In this document: in pieces, positions 26,620 to 53,992 of the stretch
Layout of the letters: each line of letters begins with the position of its first letter
Numbering within the stretch: position 1 is the first letter of the stretch
DNA from: Berkelbacteria bacterium GW2011_GWE1_39_12
Lineage (GTDB): Bacteria > Patescibacteriota > UBA1384 > UBA12157
Assembly: GCA_001029735.1 (NCBI GenBank)
Contig: CP011213.1
Location: forward strand, 268,087-332,086
Length of the DNA: 64,000 nucleotides
Reading direction: 5' to 3'
The notes under the pieces: generated by a model
Databases searched by the model: none
What the model was told of the DNA's origin: nothing
Seen by the model: only the letters and a program-made list of their open reading frames with translations
Program-made: the position numbers and the translations under genes

Positions 26620-27735
26620 ATGAGCCTATCCATTGGCATTGTGGGTCTACCAAACGTGGGTAAATCCACTTTATTTAATGCCTTAGTCAAAAATTCGCAG
26701 GCGCAAGCCGCCAATTATCCATTTTGTACCATCGACCCAAACGTCGGTGTAGTTGAAGTACCTGATAAAAGGCTAAAAGTTTTAAGCGATATTTCTCACT
26801 CGGCCCAGATTGTTCCAGCCATTGTAGAATTCGTCGATATCGCCGGATTAGTTGCCGGCGCTTCCAAAGGCGAAGGCTTGGGCAATAAATTTTTAGCTAA
26901 TATCCGTGAAACCGACGCCATCTGCGAAGTCGTTCGAGTTTTCGAAGACGAAAAAATCGTTCATGTGGCCAATAAAATTGACCCAATTTCCGATATCAAA
27001 GTTATTGAAACAGAACTAGCAATTAAAGATCTAGAAACTGTTGAGAAACGGTTACAATCTTTGGAGAAAGACAAACGAGCTGGCAACAAAGAAGCGATCA
27101 AACAATCTGAGATCTTAAATAAGATCAAAGTCTTGCTTGACGAGGGCAGGATGGCTCGAGAAACTAATTTAGATGAGGATGATGCTGCAGCTATCAAGGA
27201 ACTCGGCCTTCTGACCCTAAAACCGGTTTTCTATGTTTTTAATGTTTCTGAAAAACAACTCGCTAATCCGGTCATTGCGAGTGAAACGAAGCAATCGATT
27301 GAAAAGATCGCCGCGGCCTCCGGCCTCGCGATGACAAATATTATTATTTTATGCACCAAAATTGAAGCCGAGTTAAATGAATTATCGGATGAAGAAAAGC
27401 AAGAATATTTAAACGAATTAGGCATTGAACATTCAGGCATGGAAGTACTCGCCCAAAAAGCTTATGATGTTTTGAATTTACAAACCTATCTAACCTCTGG
27501 TGAGAAAGAAACTCGCGCTTGGACAATTAAAAAAGGTGCCACTGCACCTCAAGCTGCCGGCGTTATCCATGGAGATTTTGAACGCGGCTTTATTGCGGCT
27601 GATATCGTCAAATACGACGATTTTGTCGCTAATAATGGCTGGGCCGGCGCTAAAGAAAAAGGGTTGGTCAAAACCCAAGGTAAGGACTATATCGTTCAAG
27701 ATGGTGATATCGTAATCTTTAAGTTCAATGTTTAA
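26620..27735 (+). CDS. ychF: ribosome-binding ATPase YchF (Obg family)
   Basis: [19 protein letters not shown]-loop, coiled-coil insert, C-terminal TGS domain. 371 aa. Confidence 0.9.
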
Positions 27736-41036: not shown

Positions 41037-42392
41037 TTATCCTCGAATTATTCCTAGCACTTCGTCCTTTTTTTCTTCCATCAATTCTTTGGATTTTGCC
41101 TCTAAACACAATCGTAAAAGCGGTTCTGTGTTTGACGAACGAACATTGAATCGCCAATCTGGGTACTCTATCGAGATGCCATCTAACTCGTCTTGTTTGC
41201 CGTCGGCATATTTTTCTTTAATTTCTTTGATTTTTGCCTGAGCATCATTTACTTCGGTGTTAATTTCTCCTGGCATAAAGTATTTATCAAAATATGGTTT
41301 CAAAAGCGCATCTAAGTCGCCTTTTTTTGAAACCAATTCAAGAACTAAAAGTAGTGGGATAATACCGGAATCTGCATACCAAAAGTCCTTAAAATAGGTG
41401 TGTCCCGAAGACTCGCCGCAAAAAATGCCGTCTACTTCACGCATTTTTTCTTTAATAAACGAATGACCCACCCGTGAAACAACTGCGTTCCCCCCGTTTT
41501 CTTTTGCTGAATCAATTATTGCCCAAGTAAAGCGCGGATCGTAAACAATTGTGGAGCCAGGTTTTTTCTCTAGTTGTAATTTGATTAGCAAAGCGTTCAA
41601 GTAATAAGGCTCGAGAAAATTTCCGGATTTTGTGCAAAAGAAAACTCGGTCAGCATCCGCATCCCATGCTACCCCAAGATCAGCATTCGATGATTTAACA
41701 AGTTCAACAAATTCAGGTCGATTTTCCGGTCGGAACGGATCTGGCCGGCCCTTTGGAAAATTACCATCTGGAGTATTATTTAAGCCGACTATTTCAAGCG
41801 GAAGATTACCGGCTTCAATAACTTTTTTTAGCACTTCTCCCTCTAAACCAAAATTCGGATTATAAACAAGCTTTAATGGTTTAATAGCGGAAATATCAAC
41901 ATACTTTAAAACAAATTGAGCAAAGTCGACCATTATATCTTTCTTTTCGACTGAACCCTTCGTATCACTGTCCACTTTCTCTTTGCCAGCGATGATCAAA
42001 TCTCGCATCTCGTAAATACCGGTATCAGAAGATATTGGCTTTGCTTCTTCTCGAACCATTTTTAAACCATTGTATTCAGCCGGGTTATGCGAGGCCGTTA
42101 CTTGTAAGCCACCCTGATAACCGAAATTGCCGACAGCGTAGTAAAGCATTTCGGTTGAGATTAAGCCAACATCAACAACATCTATCCCCGCATCAGTTAA
42201 ACTTTTAATCAAACTTTCGGATAGTTTTTCAGACGAAAGACGAACATCATGACCAACCGCAATTTTGCCGTTAGGCTGGACTACTTTGACATAGGCTTGG
42301 CCGATTTTGTAGATCAAATCCTCGTTTATTTCCGACGGGTAAATCCCTCTAATATCATATGCCTTAAAAATTCCGGCATTAATTTCTTGCAT
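41037..42392 (-). CDS. phosphoglucomutase/phosphomannomutase
   Basis: GGLQVTASHNPAEYNGLK (phosphoserine loop TASHNP) and four alpha-D-phosphohexomutase domains. 451 aa. Confidence 0.88.
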   Translation of the reverse strand: MQEINAGIFKAYDIRGIYPSEINEDLIYKIGQAYVKVVQPNGKIAVGHDVRLSSEKLSESLIKSLTDAGIDVVDVGLISTEMLYYAVGNFGYQGGLQVTASHNPAEYNGLKMVREEAKPISSDTGIYEMRDLIIAGKEKVDSDTKGSVEKKDIMVDFAQFVLKYVDISAIKPLKLVYNPNFGLEGEVLKKVIEAGNLPLEIVGLNNTPDGNFPKGRPDPFRPENRPEFVELVKSSNADLGVAWDADADRVFFCTKSGNFLEPYYLNALLIKLQLEKKPGSTIVYDPRFTWAIIDSAKENGGNAVVSRVGHSFIKEKMREVDGIFCGESSGHTYFKDFWYADSGIIPLLLVLELVSKKGDLDALLKPYFDKYFMPGEINTEVNDAQAKIKEIKEKYADGKQDELDGISIEYPDWRFNVRSSNTEPLLRLCLEAKSKELMEEKKDEVLGIIRG

Positions 42393-42672
42393 TTTTTTCC
42401 TTTCAATATTTTAAGAAAATTCCGCAACAAGCTCAAAATTCACCAAAAATTTTCTTTCTTGGCTATAGTTTCATTTTACTTCCATGAGAATCATTTTACA
42501 AATATGAAAAAGCCGACGAAAATCCGCCGGCTGTCTCTCAAGTTCTAAGCAATCGGGACGACTTACGCGTTTTTTTACTCCGTGCGCTCGAAGTGCTTAA
42601 AAATTGAGGATGAAGATCCGATTGTAATACAGTTATTGCATTGATTGGCCTGTACAGGTCGGATCATCCCTG

Positions 42673-43089
42673 TTACAGGCTAAGACGATACTTTGAGTCA
42701 GTCCAAACCTTTTTCTGAGTTACGTATTCGGTTCGACCGACCCCAAAGGGTAGAACACCTGACGAGGCGGGCCTATCAATCCCCATCAGGTTGAAACGAT
42801 CAGCCAAGTTTGCAACTTGCTCCGCTTGAAAGCCGGGAGCCAAGGCAACATGGCCGGTCGTCCAGACGAACCCTACCAGGCTAAGACCGTAGAAGCCCGA
42901 TAGAGCGAGCAGGTGGAACGGGGTGAGCGACTCTGAAGCAACGAAATACATCCGTAAACCTCCCGCGACCAGCTCGGACAAGTGATAATTTCGGCACTCG
43001 ATTGCCGACATCGGAAATGATCCGACAAATCGAATATAGATTTTTCGCTCATCAGTGTCAAGATCTGTCAAGCGGTTATTAAACGCCAA
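42673..43089 (-). CDS. hypothetical protein (138 aa; GC-rich)
   Basis: TTG start. 11-nt overlap with upstream partner. Confidence 0.4.
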   Translation of the reverse strand: MAFNNRLTDLDTDERKIYIRFVGSFPMSAIECRNYHLSELVAGGLRMYFVASESLTPFHLLALSGFYGLSLVGFVWTTGHVALAPGFQAEQVANLADRFNLMGIDRPASSGVLPFGVGRTEYVTQKKVWTDSKYRLSL

Positions 43090-43543
43090 ACTCGGTCAGG
43101 TAGTTGTTGGCAGCTGTAATGGCCAGAAAATAATCATCTTTGTCTGACATCATCCCGTCTATTTCAAAACACATCGAGCTCTGCAGGTCGATATTATCTC
43201 CATGAATACGCGCTTCTTGCCCTAGATATATTGTCTTGAAATAACCTCGTTTCATTACCTCATCGAAAGATTCAGGCGGCAACTCAAATGTATCATTAAT
43301 CATGATCACTTTCCCGTCGGCCCGGATATCTATTAGAAAACCAAAAGCACAGTCATCAATCACGGCGATAAATAGGTTGCGGGAAGGAATCAGGCCACAA
43401 TTTGATAAGGCTAACTTCTTGATTTCGTCATACGTCTCTTCGTCCAACCCGCAATAAATTCCTGGACCGGAATTAGTGTTTTCATCTCCTTCAACACATT
43501 CGAGGAAGGCCAAAGTTTTCTCGGGTTGAGTCGCAATCAACAT
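43079..43543 (-). CDS. hypothetical protein (154 aa; GC-rich)
   Basis: ORF divergent from pyrG. No family recognised. Confidence 0.45.
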   Translation of the reverse strand: MLIATQPEKTLAFLECVEGDENTNSGPGIYCGLDEETYDEIKKLALSNCGLIPSRNLFIAVIDDCAFGFLIDIRADGKVIMINDTFELPPESFDEVMKRGYFKTIYLGQEARIHGDNIDLQSSMCFEIDGMMSDKDDYFLAITAANNYLTEFGV

Positions 43544-43634
43544 GTCTACACCCCCTTACCAAGATCTTAAACCTAATATTTTAAGTTCGTCAAATTTGAC
43601 AAATGAAAATACCATTGCTAAGTTGAAGATAACA

Positions 43635-45248
43635 ATGACCAAATATATCTTTGTCACCGGAGGCGTTCTCTCCGGACTCGGCAAGGGGGTAACAGCCGCC
43701 TCTATCGGTAATCTTTTGGTCTCTCAGGGATTCAATGTTTGGATGCAAAAATTTGATCAGTACTTAAATGTCGATGCCGGGACCATAAATCCCAATAAGC
43801 ATGGTGAAGTTTTTGTTTTGGATGACGGCGCTGAAACCGATCTTGATCTAGGTCATTACGAAAGATTTATCGATACCTCACTAAATAGAACCTCTTCAGT
43901 TATGACCGGTCAAATCTACAAAGCTATTTTGGAAAACGAACGAGCTGGCAAATATTTAGGCCAAGACATTCAAGTGATTCCTCATGTCACCGATGAAGTG
44001 AAACTCCGCATCACTCGAGCTGCTAAGGAAAGTAAGTGCGATATTTTAATCACGGAAATCGGCGGCACGATTGGCGATTACGAAGGTATGCATTTCGTTG
44101 AAGCTATCCGCCAGATGCGACACGATGTCGGTCAAAACAACGTCCTTTATGTTCACGTTGGGTTTTTACCTTATTTAGGCGCCTCGGAAGAATTAAAGTC
44201 TAAACCAATTCAAAACAGTGTTCACGATCTTTCAGGGCTTGGCATCCAACCGGATATTTTAATCGCCCGTGCCGATCATCCGGTCGAAAAATCGATGATT
44301 AAAAAGATTGCCTTATTCACTGGAATCGATGTTGAATCAATTATTCCTTTAGAAACAGTTGATTCGATTTACAAAGTTCCTCAAATTCTACAGAAATTTA
44401 ATGCCGATAAGATTGTCGCCGCCAAACTAAAACTTAAAATAAAAAATGGTAGCAGAACAAAATGGAATGAATTTATTAAAAAAATCGAGATAGATAAAAA
44501 GAAGACCGTAAAAATTGCTTTGATCGCTAAATATATGGGGCTGAAAGACACTTATTTTTCAGTTACCGAAAGTCTGAAAATCGCCGGAATTTGGCAAGGG
44601 GTCAAAACTGAAGTTGATTGGATCGATTCCGAAGAATTAGAAAATCTTCCGCCAAAAAAGATCGCTGCAAAATTTAAAGAGTACGATGGGATTTTAGTGC
44701 CAGGAGGCTTTGGAAGCCGCGGAATTGAAGGGAAAATTAGCGCTATAAAATATGCACGTGAGCATAAAAAACCGTTTTTAGGGCTGTGCTATGGCATGCA
44801 ACTAGCAACAATTGAGTTCGCCAGACACGTGGCAGGTTTGAAAGACGCTAACACTACTGAAGTTAATCCAAAAACATCTCATCCGGTTATTCATATCATG
44901 CCGGACCAAGAAAAAAAGATGCTCAAAAACGACTACGGCGGCACCATGAGACTTGGCGCATATCCTTGTAAAATAATAGATAATACAAAAACTGCCAAAG
45001 CATACGGAGAAAAAAATATTTCCGAGCGTCACCGCCACCGCTATGAATTTAATAATGAATATCGCGAGATCTTAACTAAAAAAGGCCTAGTAATTTCAGG
45101 CACTTCGCCCGATGATTTATTAGTCGAGATTATAGAGCTAAAAGATCATCCCTTTTTCATTGCAACCCAGTTTCACCCAGAATTTAAATCCAGACCTCTA
45201 AAACCCCATCCTCTCTTTTACGAGTTCGTCAAAAGTGCTTTAAAGTAA
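43635..45248 (+). CDS. pyrG: CTP synthase
   Basis: MTKYIFVTGGVLSGLGKG N-terminus, synthetase domain, C-terminal GATase (GLCYGMQ...). Start at ATG 43635, M32 of the ORF-track reading. Confidence 0.93.
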   Translation: MTKYIFVTGGVLSGLGKGVTAASIGNLLVSQGFNVWMQKFDQYLNVDAGTINPNKHGEVFVLDDGAETDLDLGHYERFIDTSLNRTSSVMTGQIYKAILENERAGKYLGQDIQVIPHVTDEVKLRITRAAKESKCDILITEIGGTIGDYEGMHFVEAIRQMRHDVGQNNVLYVHVGFLPYLGASEELKSKPIQNSVHDLSGLGIQPDILIARADHPVEKSMIKKIALFTGIDVESIIPLETVDSIYKVPQILQKFNADKIVAAKLKLKIKNGSRTKWNEFIKKIEIDKKKTVKIALIAKYMGLKDTYFSVTESLKIAGIWQGVKTEVDWIDSEELENLPPKKIAAKFKEYDGILVPGGFGSRGIEGKISAIKYAREHKKPFLGLCYGMQLATIEFARHVAGLKDANTTEVNPKTSHPVIHIMPDQEKKMLKNDYGGTMRLGAYPCKIIDNTKTAKAYGEKNISERHRHRYEFNNEYREILTKKGLVISGTSPDDLLVEIIELKDHPFFIATQFHPEFKSRPLKPHPLFYEFVKSALK

Positions 45249-45299
45249 AAATTGTTTTGCCATTGCGAGCAAAGCGAAGCAATCTTTTTTTGGATAGCA

Positions 45300-45334
45300 A
45301 AAAGCCCGCTGGTTAAAACCAAACGGGCCTTTTA
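45300..45334 (+). terminator. pyrG terminator aagcccg-ctggttaaaaccaaa-cgggcct + T4
   Basis: Read directly. Duplicated at 46181-46210. Confidence 0.55.
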
Positions 45335-45347
45335 AGTCGAGGGTTCG

Positions 45348-45668
45348 CTAGAAACGATGAAACTTAGTTATGATGGGCTGCGTCTGACCAGTACAGGGCT
45401 TTTCTCCGCTAGCATACCAGCAGAAGGTAGGGCCCGCCGAGTCTTCAGAATACATTGTGGCCAAAGTTATCTTTCGGCCTTCTCGGACTACTGAAGATCT
45501 TCTCGTATCTGCCTTTATACCTTCGTATTGAGTTCGCTCTGCTGGCACATAGACCATAATATATGGCTGCTGATCTTGAGGCATCTTCAATAGTTTTGCA
45601 AGCTCAGGGCCAACGGCATCATCGCTAAACTCAAACATAAACAAACCAATAGGCTCATCTTTTCCCAT
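45348..45668 (-). CDS. hypothetical protein (106 aa; GC-rich cassette gene)
   Basis: AGGAGGAGGA RBS. Sits between the two pyrG-3' repeat copies. Confidence 0.5.
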   Translation of the reverse strand: MGKDEPIGLFMFEFSDDAVGPELAKLLKMPQDQQPYIMVYVPAERTQYEGIKADTRRSSVVREGRKITLATMYSEDSAGPTFCWYASGEKPCTGQTQPIITKFHRF

Positions 45669-45805
45669 AGTTTCCTCCTCCTATCTTGTGATTGCTTAAT
45701 TTTTTCAAGCAACTGCATATTCTAATACATTCTTGCTTTTTTGTCAACCATAAAAAGACCTATTTGGTAGGTCATTGAATCAAAATTTGTAAAAATTTTA
45801 TTCGC

Positions 45806-46205
45806 TCGGCGGCACCATGAGACTTGGTGCATATCCTTGCAAAATAATAGATAATACAAAAACCGCCAAAGCATACGGAGAAAAGAATATTTCCGAGCGT
45901 CATCGCCACCGCTATGAATTTAATAATGAATATCGTGATCTCTTAACTGATAAAGGTTTAGTTATCGCTGGTACTTCCCCTGATGATTTATTAGTCGAGA
46001 TTATCTAAAGAATCATCCCTTTTTCATTGCAACCCAATTTCATCCAGAATTTCTTTCTCGTCCTCTTAAGCCTCACCCTCTTTTTGTTGAGTTTTTGAAA
46101 AAATGCTCTAAAGTAAAAATTGTTTTGTCATTGCGAGCAAAGCGAAGCAGTCTTTTTTGGATAGCAAAAAGCCCGCTGGTTAAAACCAAACGGGCTTCTT
46201 TTAAT
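45806..46205 (+). pseudogene. second copy of the pyrG 3' end (~250 bp, frame-disrupted by a small deletion) + its terminator; ~90% identical to 44927-45340
   Basis: ORF 45817..46008 translates [40 protein letters not shown]..., nearly identical to pyrG residues ~435-500. The downstream terminator is also duplicated. Confidence 0.8.
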
Positions 46206-46229
46206 AGTTTATTTACCCTTTTCAGGGCA

Positions 46230-46421
46230 TCAAACCTTTTCCAGATCACCTTTGCTGTCGATAACCCAGCCAGGAACACTGATTGCCCCGCTGGCGATTG
46301 CTGCTTTGAGGAAATTCCCCTGCAGTCCGTTCTCGACGCCCGGAATATGAGTACCGGAGAGCTTCTTTTGTAGCTCTTCGACGAGCTGCTGCTCAGGCTT
46401 CTTCTTGTTTCGTCCGAACAT
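46230..46421 (-). CDS. hypothetical small protein (63 aa; GC-rich)
   Basis: AGGAGGAAGAA-ATG context. Confidence 0.45.
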
Positions 46422-46612
46422 TTCTTCCTCCTAATCCCTGCCTCATCTAAAGCTGCGGGAATGCCAGAACGGCATTGAGAAATCTGGTACAAAAGCCAAA
46501 AAGGCATTAAGGTACAAATTGCGACTTTCATCGCCGAAACTTACGATTTTCGTCACAAGCTTCGGGACGAGGCCGTGGGTCAAAAGACCCACGGCCGCCT
46601 ATTTAAACCCTG

Positions 46613-46933
46613 CTACTCAGGAACAGGGCAGTAGCCCTGTTTTTTCCAACCCTCCCAACCTTTTTCTGGTCGGGAGGAGATGCAGACATACGTCCGCTCG
46701 TCCTGCTTTCGCAGGGCTTCTTTTCTAAGCGCCTCGATTATCAGACGCTTGTTCCTGACCACGTCGTCCATGCTGATACTGTTACCATCGATTTTTACAA
46801 AAAGATGGTCGTTTATCATTCTAGCCGTCACAAACTCTCCCTCAGCCACCTTAAAGGTAACCCGAGGATAGAGATCCCCTGCCGCCGGAGATGTTGTGCT
46901 GTGTAGAGACAGCACTAAGTTATTTTTTTTCAT
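46613..46933 (-). CDS. hypothetical protein (106 aa; GC-rich)
   Basis: GGAGGGAAGAA-ATG context (same RBS style as the 63-aa gene). Start at MKKNN (46933). Confidence 0.45.
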   Translation of the reverse strand: MKKNNLVLSLHSTTSPAAGDLYPRVTFKVAEGEFVTARMINDHLFVKIDGNSISMDDVVRNKRLIIEALRKEALRKQDERTYVCISSRPEKGWEGWKKQGYCPVPE

Positions 46934-47128
46934 TTCTTCCCTCCGATCCGACTTTAACTGCCACACTGGGTCAGTTGCATTTTGATAGATCAATGCCATC
47001 GAACCGATTCGAAGATTTTGCCCTGCTTAGCACGGCGTGGCCAAACATTTACCAAAGTAAATGCTCGACACATACTGCGCTAAATCTAAAATATATGATA
47101 AAAAACTTATTACAATAATTGCCAATTT

Positions 47129-47350
47129 AACCACCAGTTACACCTGTTAAGATATAAACCTGGTCATACCTGTTTAGCCTCGCAAAAACGCCATTTTGGC
47201 ATTTTTTAAGACCAATCGTACCATATTTAACCTGTTAAATTGGGCATGAGTTGTCAAAGTTCTTTGCAATCTGCCTTTTGGGCTTCCGATTGTCCAACAA
47301 GAAAGTATAACACAAAAAGACCAAAAAGTCAAGCCATTAACAGGTTAGAT
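47129..47350. repeat. iteron-like sites: ACCTGTTAA x3 direct (47143, 47170, 47229; the last a near-palindrome TTAACCTGTTAA) and one inverted (47335 TTAACAGGTTA)
   Basis: Read directly. 450-bp non-coding stretch upstream of the 46933 gene and 3' of VanW. Confidence 0.4.
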
Positions 47351-47380
47351 TGGCAATTTTACATTAGTGCTTTTTTGATC

Positions 47381-49291
47381 TTATTCGCTCGGCGGCGTAT
47401 ATCCTTCGCCATACAAAAATGTATTTGGCACTGGGACATATTTACTAGTAAAAGTTTCGTTCTCTAAAACTTTGCCGTCAGCAGCGGTAACTTTATATGT
47501 GAAACTGGCGGTGCAACCGTTGATTGCTTTCTCAACTTGTCGAACCGCACCTGGTGCCATCGTTGCAGAAAAGCTATAAACGGCGCCGCCTGGCGTGGTG
47601 TAGTTTCCAACCCATGGAGTACTTATTTCTGCTGTTCGTCCGTCTTTTGTGCCGTAAATTTGAAATTCCAAAGTATTTTGACCGGCAATCGCCCAAATCA
47701 AAATCGGCGTACTCATATTATTTACAAATCTAAAGTCTGGGGCTGGGTCATAAATTGTCGCGTCCATTCCAACAGGCGGCTCATAATAACTTACACGAAA
47801 AGAATGATTTGTTCTTTGAGTGATTTTTAGACCTGAATTTAAGGCGGCCCGAAATAAAGTGGTGGAAACTTGACATAAGCCGCCGCCATATTCCGGCGCA
47901 ACCTGAGTGCTGTTTTTTATCACAAGCTCTGGTAAAAACCCGGTTGAACCGTCAATCACTCCTATAGTTTTAATCGTCGAAAATTCCTGACCAGGCTGGA
48001 TGATTGTTCCGGAAATTTTTTGCGAACCAAGCGTTAAGTTATGAATTCTATTTGATGGTGAACCCTTCCAAGAAGTTTTGCCTTCCCCTACTAATTCGCT
48101 TAATCCCATTTGCTCGGCTGAATCAGAGGTAACCTTGGGCTGAGTTGTTTTTACCGGTAAGCTAACTGTTTTGGCTTGTCCTAGGATCGCCTGAGTAATC
48201 ATCTGAAAAGACTTTGCTTTATCTAATTCATAACCTGTTTGAGAATTTTGGAATGCGGTTACCTTGCCATCTTGAACTTGGAATTTAGCATCTTTAGCTT
48301 CTTGATTTATGCCGCCAGCAATTGAATCAAGATATTGATTTATCTTACTTTGATCGGTAGTCATTACAAGTATCCAATTTTGATCGTTATTGCTACCTGT
48401 ACTTTTTAGATCGATTTTATCCGTTAAGACATTCCCTTGTTTCACTTGACCCGTAAATTTCAACCAACCAGCAAAGTTTTCAGGTTTCAACTCAAAATTT
48501 TGCTTTTCCGTTTTCAAAATAACAGATGTGACCAATGATTGGCGAACTTCGCCAATCAAAGCTTCGGCAGCGGCTTTTTTTACTTTAGGCTGAATGTCAA
48601 CAACAGAAATTTGAAAAGTTGATTTTTCTTTTAAGTAACCGAAAGAATTTAGAACGTCGTTAACTACTTTACCGAAGTCACTCTTCTTGCCGGATTTCTC
48701 TTCGACTACTATTGGATTTAGATCTTTTATCTCAATAGTGGCATCTCTTTCTGGCACATCAATTTTATTAGTAATTTCCAAAATTTGTGAATTCAGCTTT
48801 GTTCGATCGTAATTAAAAACAATACTCTCCCGATTACCTAAAAACAAAGCTCTGAGTTGTTCCTTAATAATCTGATTGAAACTGCCTTCTCGACCGATCC
48901 GCCAAGCTTCATCAACTGAAGAGTTAACATTATAGTTAACATTAAAATCATTGGAATTGATTTTCCAATTTTGGTCTAAGTAGTTTAATTGAACTTCTGA
49001 GTGGCCAACATTGGCAATTTTGCTTTGCAAAATGACAGATGCCTCAGCCTTAGTCTTGCCGCCCAAATTCACATCGCCAAAATATGTTTTTGGCATAATC
49101 CTATTCTGGTATGTCAAATTAAATATAAAAATAAAAAGACCAACAAAAATTAGAGCTAAGCCAATTGCCAAACCTAATTTCATTAGGTTCTTGTTTTGAC
49201 TTAATTTAACAAAGCCTGCCCGCAACGTTTTCGGCGTTGCTAATGCCGGCGAGTCGATCTCTTTCCCTAATTGGCCTTTTTTTTGAGCCAC
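47381..49291 (-). CDS. VanW-domain protein (N-terminal TM + repeated beta-rich domains + C-terminal VanW)
   Basis: C-terminal region GGGLCQVSTTLFRAALNSGLKITQRTNHSFRVSYYEPPVGMDATIY is the VanW signature. Confidence 0.75.
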   Translation of the reverse strand: MAQKKGQLGKEIDSPALATPKTLRAGFVKLSQNKNLMKLGLAIGLALIFVGLFIFIFNLTYQNRIMPKTYFGDVNLGGKTKAEASVILQSKIANVGHSEVQLNYLDQNWKINSNDFNVNYNVNSSVDEAWRIGREGSFNQIIKEQLRALFLGNRESIVFNYDRTKLNSQILEITNKIDVPERDATIEIKDLNPIVVEEKSGKKSDFGKVVNDVLNSFGYLKEKSTFQISVVDIQPKVKKAAAEALIGEVRQSLVTSVILKTEKQNFELKPENFAGWLKFTGQVKQGNVLTDKIDLKSTGSNNDQNWILVMTTDQSKINQYLDSIAGGINQEAKDAKFQVQDGKVTAFQNSQTGYELDKAKSFQMITQAILGQAKTVSLPVKTTQPKVTSDSAEQMGLSELVGEGKTSWKGSPSNRIHNLTLGSQKISGTIIQPGQEFSTIKTIGVIDGSTGFLPELVIKNSTQVAPEYGGGLCQVSTTLFRAALNSGLKITQRTNHSFRVSYYEPPVGMDATIYDPAPDFRFVNNMSTPILIWAIAGQNTLEFQIYGTKDGRTAEISTPWVGNYTTPGGAVYSFSATMAPGAVRQVEKAINGCTASFTYKVTAADGKVLENETFTSKYVPVPNTFLYGEGYTPPSE

Positions 49292-49304
49292 CTTGATGTC
49301 CCCT

Positions 49305-49520
49305 CTACTTACCGTTCAATATTTCTTCTAATAAAGATTTAGCTAAATTCCTATCATCCACCCCTGGACTTCTGCTTGAATACAAATATAGGTGGCATTG
49401 ATCCTTTTCTTTCAAGCACGAAGGAAAAGAACTGGCAGGTAGACTAACTTTTCTGCCTTCAATTTCCACCTCAATCTCGTCCCCGGTTTTCACACCAATT
49501 TTGCAAGTTAGTTTAGACAT
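49305..49520 (-). CDS. hypothetical small protein (71 aa)
   Basis: ORF on the same strand between the hppA and VanW genes. Confidence 0.4.
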   Translation of the reverse strand: MSKLTCKIGVKTGDEIEVEIEGRKVSLPASSFPSCLKEKDQCHLYLYSSRSPGVDDRNLAKSLLEEILNGK

Positions 49521-53353: not shown

Positions 53354-53992
53354 TCAGACCCATCCGTGAATCAGATGGTGAACTCGAACCAACTGTTCAC
53401 GCTTGAGCCAAGCGGCTCGGTTACGAGTGTGCGGTTGGATAGACTCGTTGTCATAGACTTCAGAGTCCCAGACCGCCGCTGTCTCAATGCCTTCTACCGC
53501 CAGCATCCGGACAATCCGGTTGGTCATTCCCGCGTGATCCACCAGGTAAACGGATTCATCGGATTTGATGAACTGCTTGCCTAACTGAATCACGTTTTTA
53601 GACGTGAAGTACTTCTCGGGATCCTTGGCCGGTGGCCAAATGCCATTTATTCGGTGGCGATTGGCATAAAACCAATACCGATCGAGGCCAAAGAGAATTT
53701 CCCACTGGCAAACGATCGGCAGGATGAGCTGCGCGGCAATCTTCTGAGCTTTTTGACCAAAAAGCCGATTAGGCTCTCCGGGATCGAAACTCAATCTCAT
53801 TGCCTCGACTGTCCGATAGTCGTCGCAACCATTGGCCTCGTAGATTGCTCTGACTTTCCCTAAATCGGCGTCTGTGTAAGTGTTCCGGCCAAAAGCTTGG
53901 CCAAAAACTACTTTGGCGTCACGAGCACACTGTCTAGTCGATGGTCTCATATCTAAGACGTTCAAATATGCGACTAGCCCAACTGTTTTCAT
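53354..53992 (-). CDS. hypothetical protein (212 aa; GC-rich island within glycan cluster)
   Basis: AAGGAGG RBS 8 nt before ATG. No family recognised. Confidence 0.5.
   Translation of the reverse strand: MKTVGLVAYLNVLDMRPSTRQCARDAKVVFGQAFGRNTYTDADLGKVRAIYEANGCDDYRTVEAMRLSFDPGEPNRLFGQKAQKIAAQLILPIVCQWEILFGLDRYWFYANRHRINGIWPPAKDPEKYFTSKNVIQLGKQFIKSDESVYLVDHAGMTNRIVRMLAVEGIETAAVWDSEVYDNESIQPHTRNRAAWLKREQLVRVHHLIHGWV

Follow-up and report, generated by a model that had tools for sequence, protein, structure and literature searches.

How did the 3' end of a housekeeping gene come to be present twice at one site, with unrelated small genes behind each copy? The question is raised by the pyrG locus of Berkelbacteria bacterium GW2011_GWE1_39_12, a groundwater member of the candidate phyla radiation (CPR), of which we analysed a stretch of 64,000 nt (contig CP011213.1, positions 268,087 to 332,086; hereafter the window, whose own numbering is used throughout). 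An interval of 2.13 kb lies there between pyrG on the plus strand, which encodes CTP synthase, and a convergent gene on the minus strand whose product carries a VanW domain. In this interval we found a second copy of the pyrG 3' end together with its terminator, as well as three small open reading frames (ORFs). The reading that we favour, and to which we assign a probability of roughly 0.6, holds that a variable island is present here in two alleles, which came from sister Berkelbacteria lineages and were put in tandem by one homologous crossover and one join at a short microhomology. The argument turns on the following features:

43635-45248, plus strand: intact pyrG (CTP synthase, 537 aa; Pfam CTP_synth_N, E=1e-112; GATase, E=1.5e-40)
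45249-45333, plus strand: terminator block T1, 94-96% identical to 46117-46200
45798-45813, minus strand: VanW 3'-end fragment of 16 nt (last five codons and stop), an exact 16-mer match to 47381-47396
45807-46116, plus strand: pseudo-pyrG 3' fragment (copy 2) without the first 434 codons, identified by alignment to copy 1
46117-46200, plus strand: terminator block T2, a duplicate of T1 with which it shares an identical 43-nt run
47381-49291, minus strand: intact VanW-domain gene (636 aa; Pfam VanW, E=3e-41; PG_binding_4, E=4e-28)

The product of the intact pyrG is a 100% match to a Candidatus Berkelbacteria CTP synthase, and the genome is also on record as GCA_003509005.1. Using a repeat search and MAFFT alignment we found that 44936-45333 (copy 1) recurs as a 398-bp repeat at 45807-46200 (copy 2). 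The identity of the two copies amounts to 87% in BLAST (403 columns, 4 gaps) and to 89% of the MAFFT columns, and they differ at 54 of about 400 positions. The repeat is made up of the last 313 bp of pyrG (44936-45248) and 85 bp of a non-coding terminator block. An earlier reading of the window, made by inspection of the letters and hereafter called the sequence-only reading, had described a duplication of about 250 bp of pyrG end plus a 90-bp terminator region; the duplication is real, but the coding part is longer and the non-coding part slightly shorter than was stated there. That reading had also taken the second copy for a pseudogene fragment, rightly so: besides the absence of the first 434 codons, a 4-bp deletion between 46004 and 46005 leads to a stop at 46006-46008, and an additional A in the run 46098-46103 breaks the frame a second time. 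After correction of the frame, the amino-acid identity of copy 2 to copy 1 is 91%.

The left edge of copy 2 contains the most informative part of the locus. The 16-mer TTATTCGCTCGGCGGC at the end of the VanW gene is found at two places in the window and no others, 45798-45813 and 47381-47396; shuffled sequences contained on average 0.04 matches when up to 2 mismatches were allowed. The match extends to 18/19 nt when its flank is included (45795-45813 and 47378-47396). Within the 16-mer lies the heptamer CGGCGGC, consisting entirely of G+C, which is present at 45807-45813, in VanW at 47390-47396 and also in pyrG at 44936-44942, where it forms codons Gly435-Gly436; copy 2 starts exactly at this point. 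To the left of the heptamer the sequence is that of the VanW 3' end (16/16, or 18/19 with flank), to the right it is that of pyrG from codon 435, and on both sides of it the flanking bases differ between the VanW and the pyrG parental contexts. A block bounded by a 16-nt repeat and joined to pyrG at CGGCGGC, as proposed earlier, can be read directly from the junction. A further match of 16/18 (45726-45743 and 47360-47377), weak evidence when taken alone, lies 51 nt farther out in the first copy and suggests that homology to the region downstream of VanW reaches past the 16-mer. The 51-nt segment that interrupts this similarity harbours a terminator-like hairpin and is absent downstream of the intact VanW gene.

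As all data are short-read metagenome assemblies, and as the two units resemble two alleles, it has to be asked whether these are strain variants of the interval that an assembler might have chained together. The region is present, at 99.9-100% identity to the window, on at least seven distinct contigs, which stem from NCBI, ENA, JGI and Logan assemblies of different samples made with different assemblers, and five contigs that we compared directly are 99.98-100% identical over 43000-49500. In the junction ...TTATTCGCT-CGGCGGC-ACCATGAG... 16 nt are common to the VanW context and 21 nt to the pyrG context. A k-mer spanning the junction is absent from both parental contexts, so that a mis-join in the assembly graph cannot make it and the reads must contain it. 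The two copies, with their 54 differing positions, are moreover easy to resolve, and an artefact is therefore scarcely credible. The k=31 Logan contigs L021, L028 and L029 all end at 46166, which is 30 nt into the identical 43-nt run of T1 and T2, as would be expected for a unitig break at a true two-copy repeat. The sequence-only reading had itself advised a check for an assembly artefact, and the presence of the duplication in at least seven contigs from independent assemblies speaks clearly for a real structure.

What occupies the same interval in related genomes? Scans of genome and metagenome collections based on VanW yielded only relatives at ≤51% identity, and closer contexts were reached via pyrG homologues with identities of 74-87%. 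The content between pyrG and VanW in these relatives is as follows:

L022 (pyrG identity 76%): empty, 33-bp spacer between pyrG and VanW, taken from the sequence
L023/24 (pyrG identity 74%): empty, 33-bp spacer, taken from gene coordinates
L025/26 (pyrG identity 75%): empty, pyrG and VanW overlap by 4 bp
L012-14 (pyrG identity 83%): one 188-aa Ser hydrolase
L016/17 (pyrG identity 87%): one 188-aa Ser hydrolase
L015 (pyrG identity 84%): 5.3 kb with a Type ISP restriction-modification gene, a 377-aa gene and a radical SAM gene
L008 (VanW identity 50%): AbiEii toxin (E=4e-17; L008:7635-8479) and a small upstream ORF
P0005 contig (pyrG identity 83%): another plus-strand gene

Between conserved pyrG and VanW flanks the relatives hence show empty sites three times and no fewer than four kinds of cargo. 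Because empty sites are found in three lineages, direct adjacency of pyrG and VanW is read as ancestral and the junction is a genuine hotspot, and from the sequence comparison we read the gap as a hotspot that received different cargo in each lineage. This agrees with the hotspot assumed in the sequence-only reading, which had called for a search for an uninterrupted pyrG-VanW junction; such a junction, with the two genes abutting, exists in three lineages. No duplication of the pyrG or VanW 3' end was found in L008, L012, L015, L016 or L022. The duplicated structure is thus not shared by any compared relative, as it would be in the case of an old fixed duplication, the outcome which that reading had named as speaking against an insertion. 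The terminator motif and any remnant related to the cargo of the present locus are likewise absent from the loci of the relatives. Defence-type cargo occurs at the site in relatives (Type ISP restriction-modification, AbiEii), whereas the cargo described here gave no matches to PADLOC, Pfam or PHROG. The restriction-modification protein is encoded at L015:2333-7506 (Type_ISP_C, E=5e-83), and the 377-aa protein of the same contig is uncharacterised. We also considered that the present cargo had replaced a decayed hydrolase in situ; this was rejected, as a tblastn search of the window with the 188-aa hydrolase from the relatives detected no remnant.

Regarding the age and origin of the two pyrG tails, we compared them after correcting the two indels of copy 2. 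There are 28 synonymous and 14 nonsynonymous changes between them, and 29 of these 42 are at third codon positions, corresponding to a synonymous divergence (dS) of 0.63, a nonsynonymous divergence (dN) of 0.06 and dN/dS of 0.10. A binomial test gave P=4.6e-5 against a ratio of 0.5, the lowest value to be expected had copy 2 evolved neutrally from the split onwards. When the nine amino-acid differences were polarised with the relatives, about 4 were assigned to copy 2 and 2 to copy 1, and copy 2 is accordingly read as carrying no excess of nonsynonymous change. The low dN/dS and the failure of neutral drift in this test indicate that both tails evolved inside working pyrG genes, copy 2 until recently, and its frame-breaking indels are, as judged from these substitutions, recent. 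Each tail is the closest sequence to the other, with 87-90% nucleotide identity as opposed to 67-77% to any sampled relative, and a block of 16 residues is common to both tails and different in every relative. Since the tails are mutually closest, the donor would be a sister lineage.

Purifying selection on both tails, as well as the microhomology junction, would also be accounted for by a large tandem duplication of both whole genes, in which both pyrG copies stayed functional for long and a later deletion ran from the 3' end of the first VanW gene to codon 435 of the second pyrG, joining at CGGCGGC. This course of events we regard as highly improbable. It would require two pyrG genes to be maintained long enough to reach a dS of about 0.6, and this in a genome with a longest contig of only 915 kb, it leaves the unrelated cargo blocks unexplained, and a duplicated pyrG was not found in any relative.

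The cargo itself consists of two blocks, one behind each terminator copy, with the following features:

45348-45668, minus strand: ORFan 106a (106 aa), ribosome-binding site AGGAGGAGG, G+C content at the three codon positions (GC1/2/3) 0.51/0.43/0.43, AlphaFold2 mean confidence (pLDDT) 49.5
45747 to 45719, minus strand: promoter-like site for 106a, TTGACA-17-TAGAAT, found by consensus scan (11/12 match)
45773 to 45757, minus strand: terminator-like hairpin preceding the promoter-like site of 106a
46230-46421, minus strand: ORFan "63" (63 aa), ribosome-binding site AGGAGGAAGAA-ATG, GC1/2/3 0.61/0.36/0.59
46613-46933, minus strand: ORFan 106b (106 aa), ribosome-binding site GGAGGGAAGAA-ATG, GC1/2/3 0.52/0.38/0.55, AlphaFold2 pLDDT 41.5

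The blocks that follow T1 and T2 share nothing beyond their ends, as is expected for two alleles of a hotspot. All three small ORFs of the sequence-only reading (106, 63 and 106 aa) are present on the minus strand and have strong, well-spaced ribosome-binding sites; the NCBI annotation gives 106b as a 128-aa version starting from 46999. The GC1 values above GC2, the raised GC3 and the strong ribosome-binding sites are the reason why the 63-aa ORF and 106b are probably real genes. The earlier description of the ORFs as GC-rich applies to 46230-46933 (49.6% G+C, compared with 40% for the genome) but not to the block between the copies (41.6%), and the initiation context with GGAGG, thought at the time to be unusual, is not so, as a GGAGG Shine-Dalgarno sequence is present in about 8 of 38 host genes of the window. 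The three ORFs are unrelated to each other and have no paralogues elsewhere in the window. For 106a and 106b only self matches were obtained among 5.8 billion proteins in a word-indexed search, and likewise for the 63-aa ORF among 1.84 billion representatives in an exhaustive HMMER search. None of the three matched Pfam, PHROGs, NCBIfam or PADLOC, and the AlphaFold2 models of 106a and 106b were too poor for a fold search. The suggestion that the small proteins be searched against phages and plasmids led to no phage, plasmid or viral-contig relatives: the three proteins had none in IMG/VR, and when the interval was compared by blastn with collections of phages and plasmids, only pyrG homology came back.

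How, then, might the tandem arrangement have arisen? In the ancestral state convergent pyrG and VanW would have abutted, and the gap would later have been filled separately in each lineage. One allele would have had the order pyrG-T-[terminator, promoter, 106a]-VanW and the other pyrG-T-[63, 106b, structured leader, promoter]-VanW, T being the terminator block. DNA of one lineage would then have entered the other, for which natural transformation is the simplest route. It would have comprised the pyrG 3' end with the block T, the cargo and, of the VanW 3' end, no more than about 16 nt. In pyrG the incoming DNA would have recombined homologously at one of its ends. At the other end there was too little VanW homology for a double crossover, so that it would have been joined illegitimately at CGGCGGC inside the recipient pyrG, and the donor island would have been added rather than swapped. 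The product would be an intact pyrG plus an orphaned tail (45807-46116), which has acquired its two frame-breaking indels since. In agreement with this order, the stretch between copy 1 and copy 2 has the make-up of an entire donor interval, with terminator hairpin, promoter and 106a, and the hairpin at 45773 to 45757 would have ended VanW in the donor arrangement. Because a VanW 3' fragment stands at the junction, the added DNA would be the same chromosomal interval of a sister lineage and not an element with a pyrG mimic. Directly visible are the anatomy of the locus, its microhomology junction, the empty or differently filled sites of the relatives and the selective signature of the two tails, whereas the donor lineage, the copy that came from it, the route of uptake and any function of the cargo are inferred.

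Integration in the Campbell manner, starting from a circle closed at this microhomology, would leave the very same product, and sequence does not tell the two routes apart; the Campbell-type integration of a circular element with pyrG 3' homology that the sequence-only reading had put forward is therefore compatible with the structure. Its other suggestion, a repeated insertion of foreign cassettes that each time regenerate the pyrG 3' end, found no support. There is a single duplication, relatives that do bear cargo show no duplicated pyrG or VanW 3' end, no recombinase is called in the interval or within about 10 kb on either side, a short att-like core is lacking, and the VanW fragment would mark the added DNA as an interval of a sister lineage rather than a foreign cassette.

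A homologous anchor combined with a join at a microhomology of 3-10 bp is the signature of homology-facilitated illegitimate recombination (HFIR). Examples from S. pneumoniae, A. baylyi and P. stutzeri (de Vries & Wackernagel 2002; Prudhomme et al. 2002; Meier & Wackernagel 2003) are summarised in PMC6382021. The present locus resembles HFIR in three respects: one boundary lies in extended homology, here the 398-bp block 44936-45333 / 45807-46200; the other is a short GC-rich microhomology, here of 7 nt and so inside the 3-10 bp range given in PMC6382021; and there is a net gain of DNA without homologue in the recipient. It differs in that the event is deduced from the natural genome of an uncultivated CPR bacterium and not from an experiment.

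Several observations weigh against the tandem-allele reading. The classical HFIR join usually deletes or replaces recipient DNA, whereas here it lies upstream of the anchor end, inside the anchor gene, and has produced a duplication of 398 bp. The un-duplicated parental arrangement was not present on any contig when we looked up the exact proteins 106a, 106b, the 63-aa ORF and VanW, so the donor lineage is hypothetical. In addition, the divergence between the repeats is a mosaic. The stretch 44936-45055 contains 5 differences in 120 nt, all of them synonymous, the central block 45056-45255 contains 42 differences in 200 nt (about 79% identity), and the non-coding terminator 45256-45333 again contains only about 4 in 78 nt. 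The terminator blocks are hence 94-96% identical, as opposed to 58% at the synonymous sites of the adjacent coding part; counted in another way, 4 substitutions and 1 indel per 85 positions of the terminator stand against 28 changes per 66 synonymous sites (Fisher P=1.3e-8). With such a mosaic, a simple model of donor and recipient needs either a terminator module that is conserved or was recently shared, or a later gene conversion. The terminator identity may accordingly reflect a constrained or recently shared module, or homogenisation by gene conversion.

The same mosaic is explained directly by a different history, an in-situ tandem duplication in which slippage or illegitimate recombination at CGGCGGC doubled the segment between pyrG codon 435 and the VanW stop, followed by replacement of about 45056-45255 of the functional tail by sequence of a diverged relative and by replacement of one cargo. 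The flanking segments (44936-45055 and the terminator) are about 95-96% identical, and the central 200 nt (about 79%) would be the imported part; its end lies close to the pyrG stop, beyond which other lineages would offer no homology. The microhomology junction is equally compatible with this history. It requires three events and not one, however, it is confronted with two cargo blocks that have no similarity beyond their ends, and none of the 5 differences in the first 120 nt changes an amino acid, a marginally improbable outcome for a copy 2 that had evolved neutrally since the duplication. For these reasons we consider an in-situ duplication possible but unlikely, and continue to prefer the joining of two alleles.

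The terminator blocks deserve attention for a further reason. T1 contains the hairpin motif (G)CCATTGCGAGCAAAGCGAAGCAATC as well as a bidirectional GCCCG...CGGGC terminator hairpin, both recognised by DNA folding. A third copy of the terminator-block motif, (G)TCATTGCGAGCAAAGCGAAGCAATC, with 21/24 matches, lies inside ychF at 27273-27296, from which it follows that the motif is a dispersed repeat. There ychF (26620-27735, plus strand) contains, at 27271-27335, the sequence GTCATTGCGAGTGAAACGAAGCAATC ... CTCGCGATGAC (21/24 to the hairpin motif of both terminator blocks). This copy is flanked by an 11-nt inverted repeat and is in frame within the YchF coding sequence. A dif/Xer-type site was ruled out for the repeat at pyrG, given that there is no turn in GC skew and that the repeat is far too long.

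Some genomic islands and prophages integrate at the 3' ends of genes, tRNA genes among them, and supply a replacement 3' end, leaving direct repeats (attL and attR) at their borders. In line with this, the locus has direct repeats of a gene 3' end, of which the upstream one leaves pyrG complete and the downstream one is orphaned. One may therefore think of a dedicated integrative element or cassette that targets the pyrG 3' end or terminator, brings its own replacement tail and has its integrase in trans or has lost it. Apart from this classical island signature, the 43-nt identical run, the hairpin motif of a dispersed family and the defence genes that the hotspot holds in relatives would fit such an element. 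Recombinase domains were, however, found neither in the interval ORFs (Pfam) nor among the called genes about 10 kb to either side (L003 gene table). The repeat is a 398-bp mosaic of 79-96% identity without a short identical att-like core. At its left edge VanW and pyrG meet in an illegitimate junction, which is not what site-specific recombination would yield, and the insert itself looks like the chromosomal interval of a sister lineage. Occupied sites in relatives lack such repeats as well as the terminator motif, and the cargo is without phage, plasmid or viral-contig relatives. An integrative element is thus very unlikely to be the cause of the arrangement, and the tandem alleles that we prefer are distinguished from 3'-end islands by these same features.

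Is the cargo behind T2 inert? Folding and motif scans of the minus strand gave the following features:

46422-46720, minus strand: predicted strongly structured RNA segment, minimum free energy -138.4 kcal/mol, z = -8.0
46934-47332, minus strand: predicted long structured leader of 106b (fold of 46934-47320: z = -4.8 on the minus strand, -1.2 on the plus strand)
47332 to 47304, minus strand: promoter-like site TTGACT-17-(TG)TATACT with extended -10, found by promoter scan
47117-47358: unit of 242 bp bounded by 16-nt inverted repeats AATTGCCAATTTAACC / GGTTAGATTGGCAATT (15/16)

The segment 46422-46720 spans the 3' end of 106b and the spacer in front of the 63-aa gene and includes a perfect 11-bp hairpin at 46571-46596. 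In sliding windows of 160 nt on the minus strand, z reached values down to -9.3 and was ≤-2.7 across 46450-47250, as compared to a mean of -0.6 (standard deviation 1.5, minimum -4.5) for 72 control values from elsewhere in the window. An Rfam search of 45200-47450 with E up to 1 gave no credible family, and the helices of 46422-47320, a region that takes in the 370-nt leader of 106b, are predictions made from a single sequence without homologues. Three TAACAGGT motifs lie in the 106b leader, clustered in the 242-bp unit, and the whole window contains 8, where 1.3 are expected. The 242-bp unit is flanked by TTACAAT and TTACATT, which match at 6/7 positions. It may be an element of the miniature inverted-repeat transposable type, judging from its termini, and it has no other copy in the window at ≤2 mismatches. 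One could imagine that 46201-47380 is not inert cargo but a self-contained, promoter-driven cassette of about 1.1 kb, centred on RNA, of a toxin-antitoxin or defence type new for CPR bacteria, with two embedded ORFan peptides and at a site where relatives keep restriction-modification and Abi systems. We regard this as quite unlikely. If it were true, the tandem arrangement might have been retained because both alleles are addictive or protective. Of the whole locus, only the structured RNA with its ORFan peptides might represent new biology.

Taken as a whole the locus is a clear yet ordinary trace of gene exchange that belongs to known classes (HFIR or Campbell integration, orphaned 3' ends, hotspots) and not a new mobile element. 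The hotspot concept was reportedly formulated by Oliveira et al. in 2017. The pyrG-VanW site resembles core-gene hotspots in that the same flanks bracket empty sites, a hydrolase, a restriction-modification cluster, an AbiE toxin or ORFans; it differs in its occurrence in a CPR (Berkelbacteria) clade and in having retained the molecular scar of one exchange gone wrong. Variable segments between conserved core genes have been described before (Touzain et al. 2010, PMC2884548). HFIR has furthermore been proposed as the origin of orphaned 3' ends in the arrays of type VI secretion system effector and immunity genes, of Rhs genes and of contact-dependent inhibition genes (Kirchberger et al. 2017, PMC5361080). 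As in these arrays, a constant 5' part is kept, the incoming module brings the 3' end and the old 3' end is displaced downstream as an orphan. In contrast to them, the gene concerned is that of a housekeeping CTP synthase, there is a single displacement, and the cargo consists of ORFans without recognisable toxin/immunity pairs.

With the junction, the two alleles and the empty site all in view, each recombination step can be followed in the sequence. The locus thereby provides an example, at nucleotide level, of the exchange of variable islands flanked by core genes in an uncultivated CPR bacterium with a reduced genome. The tandem-allele reading would imply homologous chromosomal exchange between diverged Berkelbacteria lineages with occasional illegitimate resolution, and it makes the pyrG-VanW junction a place to seek new defence or selfish cassettes in this clade.

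Two minor observations concern the neighbourhood of the locus. On the other side of pyrG a second lineage-specific insert is located at 42393-43634, filling 1.24 kb between a PGM/PMM gene and pyrG, while the spacing of these two genes is 78-142 bp in relatives. It contains ORFan genes of 92/138 aa and 154 aa without family matches. Its segment 42600-43078 has a G+C content of 55% and an RNA fold with z = -4.05 on the minus strand and -2.6 on the plus strand; an Rfam search of 42350-43650 (E up to 1) gave no credible family. Farther away, at 53354-53992 on the minus strand, a 212-aa gene for which no Pfam match is recorded in the L003 gene table is located between genes for GtrA and a glycosyltransferase. 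With a GC3 of 0.55 in a region of 51% G+C, this gene looks foreign relative to its neighbours.

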